From: a virus
Length of the DNA: 16,666 nt
Direction: 5' to 3' (one strand)
IMG/VR virus record: IMGVR_UViG_3300021431_000601
Location: 1-16,666 of that record
A program made the position numbers and the translations under genes. Below, one piece after another: positions 71 through 16,666 of this stretch; position 1 is the first letter of the stretch, and the number at the start of each line of letters is the position of its first letter. The notes under the pieces are model-generated. The model was given only the letters and a program-made list of their open reading frames with translations. It ran no database searches and was not told the origin of the DNA.

Positions 71-99
71 TTGACTTATTATTAATACTATGAGATAAT
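71..99 (+). promoter_or_regulatory. Left-end early promoter (sigma-A type, extended -10)
   Basis: -35 TTGACT at 71-76, 17-bp spacer, TG at 91-92, -10 GATAAT at 94-99. It lies immediately inside the ITR and upstream of the first + strand ORFs. Confidence 0.6.
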
Positions 100-127: not shown

Positions 128-274
128 ATGAGATATGTTGTATTAATGAACATGAAGTATTTAAATAGTTTTAGATGTTATGGAGATGCTGTTGATTATA
201 GAGATCATTATCAAAAGAAATATCCAAATAATATTGTAGAGATAATAACATATAATGAATTTAAAGGGAGATAA
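128..274 (+). CDS. Small hypothetical protein (48 aa), not in the supplied ORF track
   Basis: ATG at 128 is preceded by AGAGAGG (111-117). Hand translation gives MRYVVLMNMKYLNSFRCYGDAVDYRDHYQKKYPNNIVEIITYNEFKGR, with stop TAA at 272-274. It is the first ORF after the left promoter. No recognisable family. Confidence 0.3.
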   Translation: MRYVVLMNMKYLNSFRCYGDAVDYRDHYQKKYPNNIVEIITYNEFKGR

Positions 275-278
275 TAAT

Positions 279-482
279 ATGAGTAAAGTTAATATAAGAG
301 CCAAGCAATATTGGAAGTATAAAATTATTGAATATGAATATATAAGTATGAGTCATGGTGATGATGGAGATAAAATAGAAGTATGTAAAACATTACATAA
401 AACTAATAGCAAGTTAATATTCTGGCTAATAAAATTATGTTTAAAATTACAAGGAATTAAATATGAGGTAGTAAATGAATGA
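279..482 (+). CDS. Hypothetical early protein (67 aa)
   Basis: The track ORF is 255..482. ATG at 279 (MSKVNIR...) is preferred because AAGGGAG (264-270) sits 8 nt upstream, whereas ATG 255 has no SD. The stop overlaps the next gene start. Confidence 0.55.
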   Translation: MSKVNIRAKQYWKYKIIEYEYISMSHGDDGDKIEVCKTLHKTNSKLIFWLIKLCLKLQGIKYEVVNE

Positions 483-717
483 TGAAATATTAAAGTATAT
501 ATTAATGATGAAAACATTTAATAGTGAACTTATGGAATTAAATATTAAATACAGTGAACAAATTGAGAAATATAAAGATATTATTCTTGATTTAGAAAAT
601 GAAAGAGATATATTAAAAAGTAAATTATCTGAAACTAAAGCTGATCTACATTATTTATTAGAAAATGGTGAAAGTATTTATATTAGAAATAAATATATTA
701 GAGGTAATAAAGAGTGA
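475..717 (+). CDS. Small helical/coiled-coil early protein (80 aa), ends in ...RGNKE
   Basis: ATG at 475 follows GAGGT (464-468). The sequence is heptad-like and rich in charged residues. It ends in the junction cassette AGAGGTAATAAAGAGTGA (700-717), which overlaps the GTG start of the next gene. Confidence 0.6.
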   Translation: MNDEILKYILMMKTFNSELMELNIKYSEQIEKYKDIILDLENERDILKSKLSETKADLHYLLENGESIYIRNKYIRGNKE

Positions 718-968
718 GATTACAAATACAAAACGATAAAGAATATATAAAAGAATTAGAAAATTATATAGAAATATTAGAACACGAAGAAGATAGATTA
801 AGAGAAAAGTTATTAAACAAAGACAAAGAAATAGAAAGACTAAATAATATCATAAAAGAAGTAAGAGAATATATAGAAAATGGACAGGTTTTTGATATTT
901 CATTAGATAGAGAATTTGCTGTTTTTGATAGAAAAAAACTTTTAGAAATATTAGATAAAGTAGATTAG
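714..968 (+). CDS. Early paralog-family protein (84 aa) with EEDRLREKLLNKDKEIERLNNII module
   Basis: The GTG start overlaps the upstream TGA (GTGA at 714-717). It carries the 71-bp module 786-856, which is identical to 1161-1231. Confidence 0.7.
   Translation: MRLQIQNDKEYIKELENYIEILEHEEDRLREKLLNKDKEIERLNNIIKEVREYIENGQVFDISLDREFAVFDRKKLLEILDKVD
786..856 (+). repeat. 71-bp exact direct repeat, copy 1 (coding)
   Basis: GAAGAAGATAGATTAAGAGAAAAGTTATTAAACAAAGACAAAGAAATAGAAAGACTAAATAATATCATAAA is identical at 786-856 and 1161-1231. A 32-nt core (825-856) recurs at 1200-1231, 1484-1515 (1 mismatch) and 1883-1914 (1 mismatch). Confidence 0.95.
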
Positions 969-977
969 GAGGGTAAT

Positions 978-1337
978 ATGAAAGTAATAGATTTATTAAA
1001 TAAGATAGCAAATGGAGAAGAAGTACCAAAGAAAATAAAATATCATAATAGAATATACATAAAAAGAAGCGATTGCTATAACTATATATTAGAAAATGGT
1101 GGGTTTGATGATGAGTTAAAAGTAATTGTTGGTTGTTTAAATGATGAAGTAGAAATAATAGAAGAAGATAGATTAAGAGAAAAGTTATTAAACAAAGACA
1201 AAGAAATAGAAAGACTAAATAATATCATAAATGAAGCAATAAAATATATAAGAAGTAATGAATGGGGAATTGACTATGAACATAGTAATTGTAGAACTCA
1301 TTTATTAGATATTCTAAAAGGAAGTGATAAAGAGTGA
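978..1337 (+). CDS. Early paralog-family protein (119 aa): unrelated N-terminus + EEDRLREKLLNKDKEIERLNNII + ...ILKGSDKE
   Basis: ATG at 978 follows AGGAGGG (967-973). Contains repeat copy 2. The C-terminal cassette AAAGGAAGTGATAAAGAGTGA (1317-1337) overlaps the next GTG start. Confidence 0.75.
   Translation: MKVIDLLNKIANGEEVPKKIKYHNRIYIKRSDCYNYILENGGFDDELKVIVGCLNDEVEIIEEDRLREKLLNKDKEIERLNNIINEAIKYIRSNEWGIDYEHSNCRTHLLDILKGSDKE
1161..1231 (+). repeat. 71-bp exact direct repeat, copy 2 (coding)
   Basis: Identical to 786-856, and in frame in both host ORFs. Confidence 0.95.
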
Positions 1338-1639
1338 AGTTTGAATACAAAGTTAAATGTAGACATAAATTAGGCTGGAAAGAAATTAAAATTTATGCAG
1401 ATACTGATATTGAGGAGTTTTTTAACAGAAATGGAATTGAATATGTAAGAAACATTACTGACACAATAGAACATAGACAATTAAAAGAAATAGAAAGACT
1501 AAATAACATCATAAACGAATTAGAAAAAACATTATTAGAGTGGCACGAATATTGGGAAGATGATGATAGTTATAGTTGGCAATATAAAAATATTTATGAT
1601 TATTTACAAGAACTAAAAGGAAGTGATAGTAATGAGTGA
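1334..1639 (+). CDS. Early paralog-family protein (101 aa): KEIERLNNIINE core, ...LKGSDSNE tail
   Basis: GTG at 1334 overlaps TGA 1335-1337 and follows AAAGGAAG. Core motif copy at 1484-1515. Confidence 0.7.
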   Translation: MKFEYKVKCRHKLGWKEIKIYADTDIEEFFNRNGIEYVRNITDTIEHRQLKEIERLNNIINELEKTLLEWHEYWEDDDSYSWQYKNIYDYLQELKGSDSNE

Positions 1640-1811
1640 AGAATTATTAAAGTCGTTAGATGAAAAAATACTTGATGAAAAGTTTGAAAAGCTACAAAAA
1701 AATATAGAAAATTATTGTGGAGATTATGGAACGTTAGAAAGTAGATTAGAAGAAACCTTATGGATGATCTTAGATATTCTCAAAGATTTAAAAAAAGGTG
1801 ATAAAGAGTGA
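1632..1811 (+). CDS. Small early protein (59 aa), ...LKKGDKE tail, lacks the KEIERLNNII core
   Basis: The track gives 1623 (GTG). ATG at 1632 (MSEELL...) is preferred: it lies 9 nt downstream of AAAGGAAG (1615-1622) and overlaps the upstream stop (ATGAGTGA). Confidence 0.6.
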   Translation: MSEELLKSLDEKILDEKFEKLQKNIENYCGDYGTLESRLEETLWMILDILKDLKKGDKE

Positions 1812-2032
1812 AAGAAATAGAATTATTAAAAATAATATTCAAAGATAGTCCTGATATTTTAGAACCATTAAATGAAATAGACAAAGAAATAGAAAGATTA
1901 AATAATATCATAAATAAATTATTCGAATATTTAAAAGAAAATAGTAAACAACCTGAATTATTTGAAAGTGATAGATATTACGAAGATATTTTAGATAAAT
2001 TACAAGAGTTGTTAGGAAGTGATAAAGAGTGA
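1808..2032 (+). CDS. Early paralog-family protein (74 aa): DKEIERLNNIINK core, ...LLGSDKE tail
   Basis: GTG at 1808 overlaps TGA 1809-1811 and follows AAGGTGA. Core motif copy at 1883-1914. Confidence 0.7.
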   Translation: MKEIELLKIIFKDSPDILEPLNEIDKEIERLNNIINKLFEYLKENSKQPELFESDRYYEDILDKLQELLGSDKE

Positions 2033-2190
2033 ATAAAATTTACTTATATTTAAGAAATACTGAAAAGAATTTTTCATTCTTCAAATATTTTGATACTGAA
2101 TATGAAAAAGATGAGTTTAAGAGAAAGCTAAAGTTCATTCCTTATCTTATGTTAATTGAGGATTCAACTGATATGATATGGAGTTCTTAA
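2029..2190 (+). CDS. Small hypothetical protein (53 aa), not in the supplied ORF track
   Basis: GTG at 2029 overlaps TGA 2030-2032 in the same GATAAAGAGTGA cassette used by the three preceding junctions. Hand translation gives VNKIYLYLRNTEKNFSFFKYFDTEYEKDEFKRKLKFIPYLMLIEDSTDMIWSS, with stop TAA at 2188-2190. Confidence 0.4.
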   Translation: MNKIYLYLRNTEKNFSFFKYFDTEYEKDEFKRKLKFIPYLMLIEDSTDMIWSS

Positions 2191-2194
2191 TTAA

Positions 2195-2305
2195 CTCACT
2201 ACTTGTTAATAAGTAGTGAGAGTAACAAGTTAACCTCTCGTTACTCTCAGTGCTTATTAGCACTAAAAATAAGGGTGATGACCGACATCAGAACACCTAC
2301 GGGTG
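2195..2305 (+). ncRNA. Structured, relatively GC-rich noncoding element: candidate small RNA (pRNA-like?) or structured 5' leader of the SSB-like gene
   Basis: Five consecutive hairpins. H1: 2195-2204/2211-2220, 10 bp, loop GTTAAT. H2: 2221-2226/2240-2245, extendable to 9 bp in competition with H1, with a 13-nt loop containing GTTAAC and CCTCTC. H3: 2249-2254/2259-2264, loop TATT. H4: 2276-2280/2286-2290. H5: CACC-TACG-GGTG at 2294-2305. I counted 48 G+C in 2191-2310 (40%), visibly above the surrounding sequence. The strand and the boundaries are not established. Confidence 0.4.
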
Positions 2306-2318
2306 AGGAGGAAATTTT

Positions 2319-2774
2319 ATGAATGAAGAAAAAAGAACAGGAGTAAAAAATGCAATAATGGTTACATCAGATATTTTTGGTGAATCAAAAGCTAAAAGAA
2401 TGACATCACTTGATTTAAATGATGAAGAACAAGTTGATATGTTCTTAAATGCTCAAAATGATGCTGATTTTAAGCTAAATGATTGTGCTGGAAAAGTATT
2501 AACTATTATTGGAGCAACTATTGGAGAATATCCAAATGAAACAACTAATGAAGAAACTGGAGAAGTAATTATAAGAAAGAAACATTCACTTTGTTTATTT
2601 GATGAAGATGGAAAGAGTTATGTAACTGGTTCTGGAACTTGTTATTATAGCTTTGCTCAAATAGTAGCACTTAAAGGAATGCCAACAAAGGAATCACCTT
2701 TAAAAATTGAAGTTGTAAAAGTTCCAGCTGAAATTAAAGGACATGAATATTTAAAAGTTAAAATAGCTAAATAA
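2319..2774 (+). CDS. Putative OB-fold single-stranded DNA-binding protein (151 aa); the product assignment is tentative
   Basis: Strong SD GAGGAGG (2305-2311) lies 7 nt before the ATG. The layout (acidic N-terminal part, then KVLTIIGATIGE...ETGEVI...LFDEDGKSYVTGSG...) resembles phage SSBs of Firmicute phages as I remember them. This was not verified by search. The CDS itself is confident; the function is about 0.4. Confidence 0.6.
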   Translation: MNEEKRTGVKNAIMVTSDIFGESKAKRMTSLDLNDEEQVDMFLNAQNDADFKLNDCAGKVLTIIGATIGEYPNETTNEETGEVIIRKKHSLCLFDEDGKSYVTGSGTCYYSFAQIVALKGMPTKESPLKIEVVKVPAEIKGHEYLKVKIAK

Positions 2775-2803
2775 TTGAAAAAATAACCATCTTGTGCTAT
2801 ATA
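2775..2803 (+). promoter_or_regulatory. Internal promoter upstream of the lysis module (extended -10)
   Basis: -35 TTGAAA at 2775-2780, 17-bp spacer, TG at 2795-2796, -10 TATATA at 2798-2803. It is embedded in a long hairpin (2782-2793 / 2813-2824). Confidence 0.5.
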
Positions 2804-2829
2804 TTAGATAGAAAGGTGGTTATTATTTT

Positions 2830-3039
2830 ATGGAAGAATTATTTAAACTTATTGTTGATAATGGATTGGGTATTGGTTCATTTATAGCTCTTTTATATTT
2901 TATATTTACATATGTAAAAGAATTAAATGAAACAATGACAAGAATATCAAACACAATGATCCAGATGCAAATTAATATGGAAAAAATGACAGATAGAATT
3001 GATAAGATAGAAGAAAAGATTAATTTTAAGGAGGTATAA
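2830..3039 (+). CDS. Holin-like protein, BhlA/UviB-type (69 aa)
   Basis: One N-terminal TM segment (GLGIGSFIALLYFIFTYV) is followed by a charged helical tail ending ...DRIDKIEEKINFK. Size and layout match the BhlA/UviB holin-like peptides of Bacillus/Clostridium. It lies upstream of the endolysin. Confidence 0.7.
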   Translation: MEELFKLIVDNGLGIGSFIALLYFIFTYVKELNETMTRISNTMIQMQINMEKMTDRIDKIEEKINFKEV

Positions 3040-3042
3040 TTT

Positions 3043-3246
3043 ATGTTATCAAGAGAAGAGTTAAGATTATTAAATGAAATTTTAGGAGGTTTAGAACTAG
3101 ATGGAGAAAAAGACAAATTAAAAACTAAATTATCATTAATAATTGAACAATTAAACTTAATGGAAAAATCTCAAGAAGAAGTTGCTAAAATACAAGATAA
3201 AATTGTAGCTTTGGATGGTGATAAAGATGAGAAAAAAGAAGATTAA
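3043..3246 (+). CDS. Hypothetical acidic helical protein (67 aa)
   Basis: AAGGAGG (3028-3034) lies 8 nt before ATG 3043. No TM segment and no recognisable family. Confidence 0.65.
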   Translation: MLSREELRLLNEILGGLELDGEKDKLKTKLSLIIEQLNLMEKSQEEVAKIQDKIVALDGDKDEKKED

Positions 3247-3376
3247 AAAAGAAGAAATTAAAGAAGATGTAATTGTTGAAAATGAAGATATTGGAGAAGT
3301 TCTTCCAATAATAGCTGATGAAGATAATCCAGTAAGTGATGGAAAAGAATTTGCTGGAGGTGATGAGGATGAGTAA
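3227..3376 (+). CDS. Possible small overlapping ORF (49 aa, K/E/D-rich), not in the supplied track
   Basis: ATG at 3227 gives MRKKKIKKEEIKEDVIVENEDIGEVLPIIADEDNPVSDGKEFAGGDEDE. It overlaps the 3043 ORF by 20 nt. Its stop (TAA 3374-3376) overlaps the endolysin start (ATGAGTAA), filling an otherwise unexplained 120-nt gap. The SD is weak. Confidence 0.3.
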   Translation: MRKKKIKKEEIKEDVIVENEDIGEVLPIIADEDNPVSDGKEFAGGDEDE

Positions 3377-4097
3377 AACACCACAACAATTTTGTGATAA
3401 AGTATTAGGACATAAATTTGATGAAGATGGTCGTTATGGTTGCCAATGTGTTGATGGATTTAAAACTTGGATAAGAATTGAATTAGGTTTAAATATGGGA
3501 AAAGTTACTTTTTGTTCTCCAACTAATTTAGCAACATCAATTTGGGATAACTTTGAAGAACTAGGACTTGATAAATACTTTGATAAAGTAAGAGCTGATT
3601 CAATGGTTGATGGTGATTGGGCTATATGGGGAATAAAATCAAGAAGTTGTCCATCATCTCATATTGCTATGTTTAGAAAAGATTCTGGAAATAATTTAGG
3701 AATTTTCTTAGGACAAAATCAAAGTAATCATCTAGAATTTACTCAACAAAGAATTTATTATAATGGATTAAGAGGAGGATTAAGACCAAAGATTTATCAT
3801 GAGGAACCAGCACCAACTCCATCAAAAGAGCATCCAATTTATGAAACTTTAGGAGATATGTATGTTAGATGGGATGCATCATATAATGCTGGAATAAAGT
3901 TAGTAAAAGATTTAACTGAGGATGGAAAAAAACATGCAACATCACAAAATCCAAATAGTTATGCTGTTTATAAAAAAGGAACTAGATTCACTTGTTATGA
4001 AACTAAAGACAAAGGATTTGGATTATGGGGAAGAAGTCCATCTGGATGGATTTGTATAAAAGGTAAATCTGGAACAGTTTATTGTAAGGAAGTTTAA
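3369..4097 (+). CDS. Endolysin: N-terminal CHAP domain + C-terminal SH3-like cell-wall-binding domain (242 aa)
   Basis: The CHAP catalytic context is present: GRYGCQCVDGF (Cys) and PSSHIAMF (His). A proline-rich linker (EEPAPTPSKE) follows. The C-terminal region ending ...GLWGRSPSGWICIKG is typical of bacterial SH3 domains. Start moved from 3336 to ATG 3369, which lies 8 nt after GGAGG (3356-3360). Confidence 0.85.
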   Translation: MSKTPQQFCDKVLGHKFDEDGRYGCQCVDGFKTWIRIELGLNMGKVTFCSPTNLATSIWDNFEELGLDKYFDKVRADSMVDGDWAIWGIKSRSCPSSHIAMFRKDSGNNLGIFLGQNQSNHLEFTQQRIYYNGLRGGLRPKIYHEEPAPTPSKEHPIYETLGDMYVRWDASYNAGIKLVKDLTEDGKKHATSQNPNSYAVYKKGTRFTCYETKDKGFGLWGRSPSGWICIKGKSGTVYCKEV

Positions 4098-16599: not shown

Positions 16600-16666
16600 A
16601 AAATACCATTTTTTAGTACAAATTACACAAACATTAGTACTAGCATAGTAATATCAATGGTATGCG
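16600..16666. repeat. Right inverted terminal repeat (67 bp)
   Basis: Exact reverse complement of 1-67. Confidence 0.97.

Follow-up and report, generated by a model that had tools for sequence, protein, structure and literature searches.

A repeated junction sequence joins small early genes in a phi29-like phage genome

The window analyzed here is the whole of IMG/VR virus record IMGVR_UViG_3300021431_000601 (16,666 nucleotides [nt]), a phi29-like genome whose exact 67-bp inverted terminal repeat (positions 1 to 67 and 16600 to 16666) identifies it as a complete linear genome. It encodes a phi29-type gene set (major capsid protein, connector, tail knob gp9, gp16 packaging ATPase, family B DNA polymerase, and phi29-type SSB) and has a G+C content of 22 to 31%; megablast and blastn searches of the INPHARED phage collection with the window returned no match. 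At its left end, between a promoter-like site at 71 to 99 and the SSB gene at 2319, lies an array of small genes in which all but one of the junctions carry almost the same short sequence, which we call the cassette.

Five cassettes are present on the plus strand. Cassette 1, AGAGGTAATAAAGAGTGA (700 to 717), forms the last 18 nt of an 80-amino-acid (aa) early gene (475 to 717) that ends IRGNKE*; it combines a weak Shine-Dalgarno sequence (predicted rRNA pairing, -7.2 kcal/mol), a spacer, and GTG 714, which overlaps the TGA stop and opens an 84-aa paralogue (714 to 968). That gene ends LLEILDKVD* without a cassette, and at this junction (968/978) the TAG stop is followed by a separate GGAGGG and then by ATG 978. 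The 119-aa paralogue that begins there (978 to 1337) ends LLDILKGSDKE* in cassette 2, AAAGGAAGTGATAAAGAGTGA (1317 to 1337), which has an extended Shine-Dalgarno sequence (-12.9 kcal/mol), an AAAGA spacer, and GTG 1334 overlapping the TGA at 1335 to 1337. A 101-aa paralogue (1334 to 1639) follows and ends KGSDSNE* in cassette 3, AAAGGAAGTGATAGTAATGAGTGA (1616 to 1639), a variant with the same Shine-Dalgarno sequence (-12.9 kcal/mol) in which ATG 1632 gives an 8-nt overlap with the upstream gene. The 59-aa gene started by this ATG (1632 to 1811) ends ILKDLKKGDKE* in cassette 4, AAAGGTGATAAAGAGTGA (1794 to 1811), where the Shine-Dalgarno sequence is AGGTGAT (-9.9 kcal/mol) and GTG 1808 overlaps the TGA. 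Last come a 74-aa paralogue (1808 to 2032), which ends LQELLGSDKE*, and cassette 5, AGGAAGTGATAAAGAGTGA (2014 to 2032; -11.8 kcal/mol), whose GTG 2029 overlaps the TGA and opens a 53-aa open reading frame (ORF) at 2029 to 2190.

A first-pass annotation, made from the sequence of the window, had listed these five junction strings and proposed that the conserved tail of each upstream protein doubles as the initiation signal of the next gene. All five strings are present exactly at the positions given above, and the GSDKE-like tails read RGNKE*, KGSDKE*, KGSDSNE*, KKGDKE*, and LGSDKE* at junctions 1 to 5. The overlapping starts described there were also confirmed: GTG 714, 1334, 1808, and 2029 each share GTGA with the upstream TGA (714 to 717, 1334 to 1337, 1808 to 1811, and 2029 to 2032), and junction 3 is the exception. 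The 12-mer GATAAAGAGTGA that the annotation had singled out is exact at 1326, 1800, and 2021 and occurs nowhere else on either strand, with a one-mismatch copy at 706 to 717. Three copies compare with an expectation of 0.01, and none of 200 dinucleotide-preserving shuffles reached that number.

The cassette has the make-up of a translation initiation signal

The cassette consensus, (C/T)TAAAAGGAAGTGATAAAGAGTGA(A), consists of an extended Shine-Dalgarno sequence, AAAGGAAGTGAT, a 5-nt A-rich spacer (AAAGA), and GTG, the last two bases of which are also the first two of the upstream TGA stop; 5 nt separate AAAGGAAGTGAT from the GTG. The complement of the Firmicute-type 16S rRNA 3′ end is AAAGGAGGTGAT, and AAAGGAAGTGAT matches it at 11 of 12 positions, a comparison that assumes a Firmicute-type tail. 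Conservation anchored on the 12-mer falls to background ~14 nt upstream, beyond the seeded GGAAGT bases, which makes the element ~21 to 25 nt long. Pairing was computed between the 22 nt upstream of each start and the Firmicute-type 16S 3′ end. The five junctions gave -7.2 to -12.9 kcal/mol, the genome's other genes gave -5.7 to -17.5 kcal/mol, and random 22-mers from the window gave -3.7 ± 2.6 kcal/mol. The junction energies lie inside the span of those other genes and far from those of the random 22-mers, in support of the earlier proposal that a Shine-Dalgarno element is placed before each overlapping start. The cassette starts are GTG in four of five cases; the 20 other starts scored comprised 17 ATG starts plus GTG 15667, GTG 714 (cassette 1 itself), and the cassette 3 ATG at 1632.

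The cassette contains a direct repeat, AGTGA-N5-AGTGA, and no inverted repeat. It was also considered as a promoter, a terminator, or an attC-like site, and these candidates were rejected, as no such signal rose above chance and the inverted repeat was missing. In locus L011, a mini-ORF of 10 codons, MDYIKGSDKE*, with a GGAG and an ATG of its own, stands before a reverse-strand cassette (which ends at 2427 of the reverse complement); its product may be a leader peptide whose translation delivers ribosomes to the cassette start.

Codons, frames, and layout variants point to conservation of nucleotides more than of a peptide

The 18-mer GGAAGTGATAAAGAGTGA has at least 116 copies in at least 80 IMG/VR stretches, often two to four per contig at a spacing of 200 to 500 nt, and the ORFs that close with it are of unrelated types, among them small membrane peptides, coiled-coil proteins, and methyltransferases of 185 to 357 aa. 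A tail found on so many proteins could be a functional peptide (for example, a degradation, interaction, or localization signal), and the identical nucleotides would then reflect the codon bias of an AT-rich genome; the preceding L(Q/K)EL or LLDIL recurs as well, and GAT, AAA, and GGA are preferred codons. The variants found in IMG/VR argue otherwise. The GAG-TGA version occurs in at least 80 stretches, GAA-TGA (with an ATGA overlap) in 18, and the preferred, nonoverlapping GAA-TAA in 6, so that the nonpreferred GAG plus TGA outnumbers GAA-TAA by at least 13:1; serine is AGT in at least 80 stretches, versus TCA or TCT in 2. In long ORFs of the same loci, Glu is encoded by GAA in 81% of cases, 64% of the stops are TAA, and Ser is encoded by AGT in 40% of cases, versus 45% for TCA plus TCT. 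The variant counts thus run against background codon usage, and selection on the peptide alone would predict the opposite ranking. Homologues in which GSDKE is encoded by different codons and is not overlapped by a start, noted beforehand as the case that would count against a dual-coding tail, are rare.

The reading frame of the upstream gene varies as well. Among 147 ORFs that end in DKE, 134 use GAT AAA GAG TGA, and in copies outside the search seed the residues before DKE change nonconservatively (KG, LR, KD, KE, ED, or RG, so that R, D, or E can stand in place of G), whereas a purine-rich GGAG, AGGA, or GAGG persists. In about 20 distinct contexts, the same 18-mer is read by an upstream ORF in frame -1 or -2 or has no upstream ORF. 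Frame -1 contexts end RK*, GK*, or WK* at the internal TGA; in others a TAG or TAA stop lies just before GGAAGTG, the upstream frame reads through to KEVIKSE*, or the 18-mer lies in an intergenic gap or behind a 10-codon mini-ORF. The cassette before the 53-aa ORF illustrates the point, since these nucleotides encode LGSDKE* in the window but CFRK* (frame -1) in L081, a close relative.

Members of the paralogous family that were sampled through their central motif, and not through the tail, gave the same picture. GSDKE occurs in this sample only with GAGTGA or GAATGA, and where the stop and start are laid out differently the peptide is dropped: the other tails include RGEDK-ATGA, KENNK-ATGA, KGD*-TAATATG, KEGK*-TAAATG, and KDK*-TAGGAGG...ATG (a selection). 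The tail peptide therefore tracks the layout of the Shine-Dalgarno sequence, stop, and start. It is also predicted to be disordered, and a literature search on "GSDKE" found nothing relevant. Together, the codons, frames, and layout variants support, by comparison among genomes, the earlier suggestion that the tail is shaped by translation signals more than by its peptide. We consider a functional peptide very unlikely, and the GSDKE "C-terminal motif" appears to be largely a by-product of a nucleotide element.

The array holds paralogues that share a further conserved block within their coding sequences

That the array genes are paralogues was absent from the first-pass annotation. A central 35-nt block encoding KEIERLNNII has four copies in the window that are 89 to 97% identical (825 to 859, 1200 to 1234, 1484 to 1518, and 1883 to 1917, plus strand). 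The second copy lies within a 90-nt direct repeat, EEDRLREKLLNKDKEIERLNNII, that is 96% identical between two neighboring paralogues (786 to 875 and 1161 to 1250), which suggests recent gene conversion or duplication within this genome. The repeated junctions could on these grounds be mere leftovers of a recent tandem duplication in this phage and have no function. Between the conserved blocks, the paralogues have diverged beyond recognition while the cassette is still exact; the genes next to the cassette, in at least 80 contigs, are unrelated and include those for membrane peptides and methyltransferases, and of 83 loci only 11 have phi29-type markers. Codons and reading frames speak against it too, and this explanation has very little probability in our judgment.

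A profile search identified at least 1,734 family members at an E value of ≤0.001 (8,000 candidates scored). The 120 best matches have no Pfam domain; their sources, where given, are metagenomes or metagenome-assembled genomes (MAGs), and the few that are named carry labels such as "hypothetical protein." The small array proteins of the window yielded only subthreshold coiled-coil noise against Pfam and PHROGs. An AlphaFold model of the product of the gene at 1334 (pLDDT, 80) consists of a beta-hairpin, a long helix, a short helix, and a disordered tail, with helix up to residue 95 and a pLDDT of <50 at residues 98 to 101, and a Foldseek search of this 101-aa paralogue model against the PDB found nothing better than an E value of 0.6.

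Of the best matches, 108 could be placed in 45 clusters of N-terminal modules (N-modules) and 52 clusters of C-terminal modules (C-modules), numbers that are somewhat inflated by clustering of the database at 90% identity. The largest N cluster (23 members) is paired with 20 C clusters, and the largest C cluster (15 members) is paired with 13 N clusters. At the nucleotide level the central block occurred in 73 instances and 17 versions, that is, with strong conservation and some synonymous variation. We read the central block as a second, in-frame recombination joint, with N- and C-modules paired almost at random in these 108 proteins.

Three family members (P0039, P0010, and P0088) are fusions or read-throughs in which the cassette stop has been lost. 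P0039, a protein of 171 aa, is built with two full N-central-C-tail units; P0010 and P0088 run past LQELKG into a common IPPE.IGTNG..GGLFDYGDR extension.

Gene gain, loss, and replacement among close relatives end within cassettes

The first-pass annotation had suggested that the cassette is a portable boundary and had proposed a search for breakpoints in related genomes. Three close relatives of the window (L081, L082, and L083) were found via the SSB gene (93 to 99% identical). L082 aligns to window positions 140 to 711 and then directly to 2013 to 3100, the two alignments overlapping by 14 nt within one cassette. It is without all five genes between cassette 1 (left end point) and cassette 5 (right end point), and the joint is seamless, with one intact cassette. 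In L081, whose SSB gene is 99% identical to that of the window, the order is the 475 gene, a cassette, a chimeric gene, a cassette, a novel 87-aa gene, a cassette, and the 53-aa ORF. The chimera joins the N-terminal half of the window's 1808 gene, through the central block, to the C-terminal half of the 1334 gene, with the third central block copy (1484 to 1518) as its crossover point. L083 carries different variable segments between the same conserved blocks. The gene at 475 to 717 is 90 to 96% identical in L081 and L082, where its tails are RSDKE* and RGDKNE*.

Single junctions of the window show the same behavior toward other loci. At the junction ending at 1811, L003 shares the upstream gene (1632 to 1811) and diverges right after the cassette, whereas L005 and L081 share only the downstream gene; at cassette 2, L031 has only the downstream gene in common. 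Relatives thus differ by gain, loss, and replacement of whole genes with end points inside cassettes, and the breakpoints of L081, L082, and L083 relative to the window coincide with cassettes, as a portable boundary would lead one to expect.

Breakpoints are enriched at cassettes, and a module is shared between unrelated phage lineages

We compared 177 copies of the 12-mer in loci that had been fetched by searching for the cassette. Among pairs of cassettes with at least 60 nt in common, 20 shared only the downstream side and 14 only the upstream side; both sides were shared only in duplicate contigs, with one exception. Similarity ends 0 to 30 nt upstream of the 12-mer (within 17 nt in 19 of 20 pairs) or 0 to 8 nt downstream of it, and gapped searches of the nonshared side gave only short, noncollinear matches to other conserved blocks. 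In a test that was not anchored on the cassette, 45 of 202 internal ends of high-identity blocks fell within 30 nt of a cassette core, which is ~1.2% of the sequence. Cassette-type ends make up 5.4% of ORF ends and 28 of the 102 breakpoints at ORF ends (27%). Breakpoints at cassettes are thus enriched ~16-fold over coverage and ~5-fold over other ORF ends, in loci ascertained via the cassette and with crude gene calls; the central blocks are enriched ~8-fold in the same cassette-chosen loci and with the same crude ORF calls.

The exchange reaches across phage types. L017 is phi29-like, with a connector 28% and a polymerase 23% identical to those of the window, and L075, a contig of 37 kb, encodes a terminase and an SPP1-type portal. 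The two have a common C-module, 95% identical over 137 nt, that is bounded by the central block and the cassette and has unrelated DNA on both sides. Cassette-bounded genes in L017, L035, L054, and L034 include DNA methyltransferases (NPPY, DPPY, and SPPY motifs and one Dcm-like N terminus), a hint that the arrays carry anti-restriction or host takeover cargo.

Modular theory proposed that short conserved boundary (linker) sequences guide homologous recombination, and such linkers have been reported absent at most mosaic boundaries, in line with the prevailing view of phage mosaicism as illegitimate recombination followed by selection (PMC3029335). Cassettes could on that view be breakpoints only as gene boundaries, illegitimate exchange being filtered by selection for products with intact genes, and half of the similarity-block ends indeed lie near some ORF end. 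At these junctions, however, conserved linkers are present, the joints are seamless with one intact cassette, and cassette-type ends are overrepresented about fivefold among breakpoints at ORF ends. An intragenic block is also a breakpoint (8-fold), with combinatorial pairing of N- and C-modules, which selection at gene boundaries does not predict. We regard the gene boundary explanation as unlikely. Like the proposed boundary sequences, the cassette is a short sequence conserved at module junctions between genomes with unrelated flanks; unlike them, it is explicit and abundant, has a second, translational role, and is accompanied by an in-frame intragenic linker. The linker model, discounted in favor of illegitimate recombination and selection, is directly testable here because explicit linkers stand at many mosaic junctions, including junctions between unrelated phage types and inside genes.

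A probable translation initiation cassette and crossover point

The explanation that we favor, with a probability of about 0.72, is that the repeated junction is a nucleotide-level translation initiation cassette, dual-coding when the upstream gene is in frame 0, and that it is also a crossover point for in-register gene exchange. The early array (475 to 2190) would probably be read as one transcript from the promoter-like site at 71 to 99. Ribosomes would either reinitiate at the GUGA overlap after termination or load directly on the strong internal Shine-Dalgarno sequence, and where the upstream gene is in frame 0 the cassette would also be translated as KGSDKE*. With all modules ending in the same stretch of at least 18 nt, recombination at cassettes, within one genome or between coinfecting phages (unrelated lineages included), could insert, delete, or replace whole genes in register; an incoming gene would automatically have a start signal and hand one to its neighbor. 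The central KEIERLNNII block would play the same role for half-genes.

Several findings weigh against this explanation or narrow it. L(Q/K)EL or LLDIL just upstream of the cassette persists across tail variants and looks like a protein-level feature of the paralogous family, which would make part of the tail a real family trait. Folding of the RNA around the junctions gave nothing significant and left the Shine-Dalgarno sequence unmasked (z-scores, -1.1 to +0.4); RNA structure that enforces coupling was rejected, there being no fold signal around the cassettes. The cassette is also found 8 to 10 nt after a stop or between genes. Given the lack of masking structure and the cassettes without overlap, independent initiation is as likely as reinitiation, and dependence of downstream genes on upstream translation is doubtful. 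We infer GTG initiation and coupling only from the architecture of the junctions. As for exchange, 78% of similarity-block ends are not at cassettes, the loci were found via the cassette, and the arrays are hypervariable accessory regions, so that an excess of breakpoints does not prove homology-driven exchange; that recombination at cassettes is homology driven, as opposed to selection filtered, is again something we infer.

Translation needs alone also do not explain the dominance of one exact spacer plus GTG over the ATGA version, because ATG is the stronger start, GAA is the preferred codon, and many alternative layouts work in the family. Three candidates may account for this dominance: homogenization by frequent recombination, selection for limited expression, and a sequence-specific factor.

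Comparison with known systems

Integron arrays consist of small promoterless genes that are read from one upstream promoter, with units gained or lost at a repeated boundary element. The window resembles them in having an array of small genes whose units come and go at a repeated boundary. It differs in that the cassette boundaries have no attC-type imperfect inverted repeat or hairpin, and no integrase domain was found in the scanned ORFs, a scan that left out a few small ORFs. Exchange presumably proceeds by general or phage recombination and is not site specific.

Bacteria and archaea are known to reinitiate translation at gene overlaps after termination, helped by an internal Shine-Dalgarno sequence (Huber et al. 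2019, PMC6728339), and in Firmicutes strong Shine-Dalgarno motifs reportedly serve reinitiation as well as de novo initiation (PMC6728339). As at ordinary 4-nt overlaps, the genes here are codirectional, a start overlaps a stop (GTGA, sometimes ATGA), and the Shine-Dalgarno sequence lies in the 3′ end of the upstream gene. Ordinary overlaps, however, evolve individually, whereas here one exact 18- to 21-mer stands at >100 junctions in many genomes, prefers GTG to ATG, and is also used without an overlap.

The cassette is close in behavior to the start-associated sequences (SAS) of Cluster K mycobacteriophages, whose function is thought to be translational (Pope et al. 2011, PMC3203893). SAS are short asymmetric repeats with a Shine-Dalgarno core that lie in one orientation a few bases upstream of many unrelated nonstructural starts; they are kept at positions unable to pair with rRNA, and the upstream stop sometimes falls inside them (PMC3203893). 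The cassette likewise lies near the starts of unrelated nonstructural genes in one orientation, with a spacer and GTG conserved beyond rRNA pairing. The likeness is in behavior only: the 13-bp SAS consensus, GGGATAGGAGCCC, has no match here with up to three mismatches, the hosts belong to different phyla, and SAS prefer ATG and are confined to one phage cluster, whereas the cassette crosses unrelated lineages. Nor are SAS described as encoding the end of an upstream protein or as a site of recombination between genes.

Conservation beyond rRNA pairing raises the question of whether the cassette is, besides a ribosome binding site, an operator for a trans-acting factor such as a T4 RegA-type repressor, a small RNA, or an RNase that coregulates early genes. 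Positions not needed for rRNA pairing (AAAGA, and GTG over ATG) are conserved far beyond their alternatives, the same argument has been made for SAS (PMC3203893), and the AGTGA-N5-AGTGA direct repeat lies within the cassette. Yet the scanned genes include no candidate regulator, with few genes of this 16.7-kb genome unassigned; unrelated phage lineages would all need the same factor unless the host supplied it; and continual recombination between copies could homogenize the sequence without any factor. An operator thus seems quite unlikely to us.

The PeSL cassettes of T4-type phages are intergenic promoter-plus-terminator units (Arbiol et al. 2010, PMC2839356; PMC4122927). They flank nonessential ORFs in hyperplastic regions, and where close relatives differ by an insertion, deletion, or replacement, recombination between PeSL copies accounts for it (PMC2839356; PMC4122927), much as the gene changes in L081, L082, and L083 relative to the window are bounded by repeat copies. 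PeSLs work at the level of transcription; the cassette, by contrast, contains neither a promoter nor a stem-loop, would work at the level of translation, and forms part of the coding sequence upstream.

A bolder and less likely proposal is that the cassette and the central block form a community-wide "standard connector" system of unrelated phage lineages that share a low-GC ruminant gut host. Two fixed joints would allow N- and C-modules to be combined and whole genes to be plugged in with expression guaranteed, and the exact sequence, including the suboptimal GTG and GAG, would be kept by selection for exchangeability or by a dedicated RNA- or DNA-binding factor rather than by efficient translation alone. 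If this were true, small early proteins (possibly host takeover or antidefense proteins) would be assembled combinatorially. At the level of the single junction, the cassette is a clean natural example of a translation signal that would dictate the last residues of the protein encoded before it. Annotation is affected as well: in a family with >1,700 members, the "conserved C-terminal motif" would mostly not be a protein feature, and GTG starts and short ORFs such as that at 2029 to 2190 are missed unless the cassette is recognized.

The cassette predicts an additional small gene

The 53-aa ORF at 2029 to 2190 is absent from the ORF track and had been predicted in the first-pass annotation from cassette 5. 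It is present in all three close relatives, with an ATG start in L082. Between the window and L083, the differences at first, second, and third codon positions number 6, 5, and 18, with 14 synonymous and 8 nonsynonymous codons; the replacements are conservative and the other frames are closed. Conservation in three relatives and the bias toward third-position substitutions bear out the prediction, and the ORF is very probably a real gene.

Host and flanking features

Multicopy cassette matches occur in genome bins labeled Firmicutes, Bacilli, Clostridia, or Bacillales. L096 and L123, both 40,887 bp with two cassettes each, were binned once as Methanobrevibacter and once as Clostridia, and the family protein P0025 is recorded in four MAGs labeled Methanosphaera or Methanobrevibacter. 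Because bin labels conflict, host labels for these phage contigs are unreliable. We favor a bacterial host for the window, as suggested by promoter-like sites of bacterial type (TG-extended) near each end of the genome and by a weak match to M23 peptidase.

The left site, TTGACT-17-(TG)GATAAT (71 to 99, plus strand), is a consensus match only, at 10 of 12 positions with a TG-extended -10 element. It lies just inside the left terminal repeat and is likely the promoter of the whole early array. A mirror site with a TG-extended -10 element lies just inside the right repeat (16595 to 16567, minus strand). No terminator-like site was found in 100 to 2190, and promoter-like matches within the array are at chance level, with none in the cassette. 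The promoter scan flags (A/T)AGACA-17-AATAAT in three central block copies (820 to 848, 1195 to 1223, and 1878 to 1906); the total of promoter-like sites equals the shuffled expectation, and these matches are thus no evidence for internal promoters. A lysin-like ORF at 3369 to 4097 was set aside, having no Pfam match even at an E value of 1.

The noncoding segment at 2196 to 2313, between the early array and the SSB gene, is strikingly conserved relative to L083. Positions 2196 to 2300 are 100% identical except for one indel, and one substitution precedes the SSB start, whereas the flanking coding DNA is 83 to 88% identical. An Rfam search gave nothing at the gathering threshold and, at a relaxed threshold, only chance-level matches around 2100 to 2400; the segment itself has no counterpart among the Rfam families. 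Its folding energy is -44.5 kcal/mol (z = -6.7), and it may be a structured RNA, akin to packaging RNA or of another kind.

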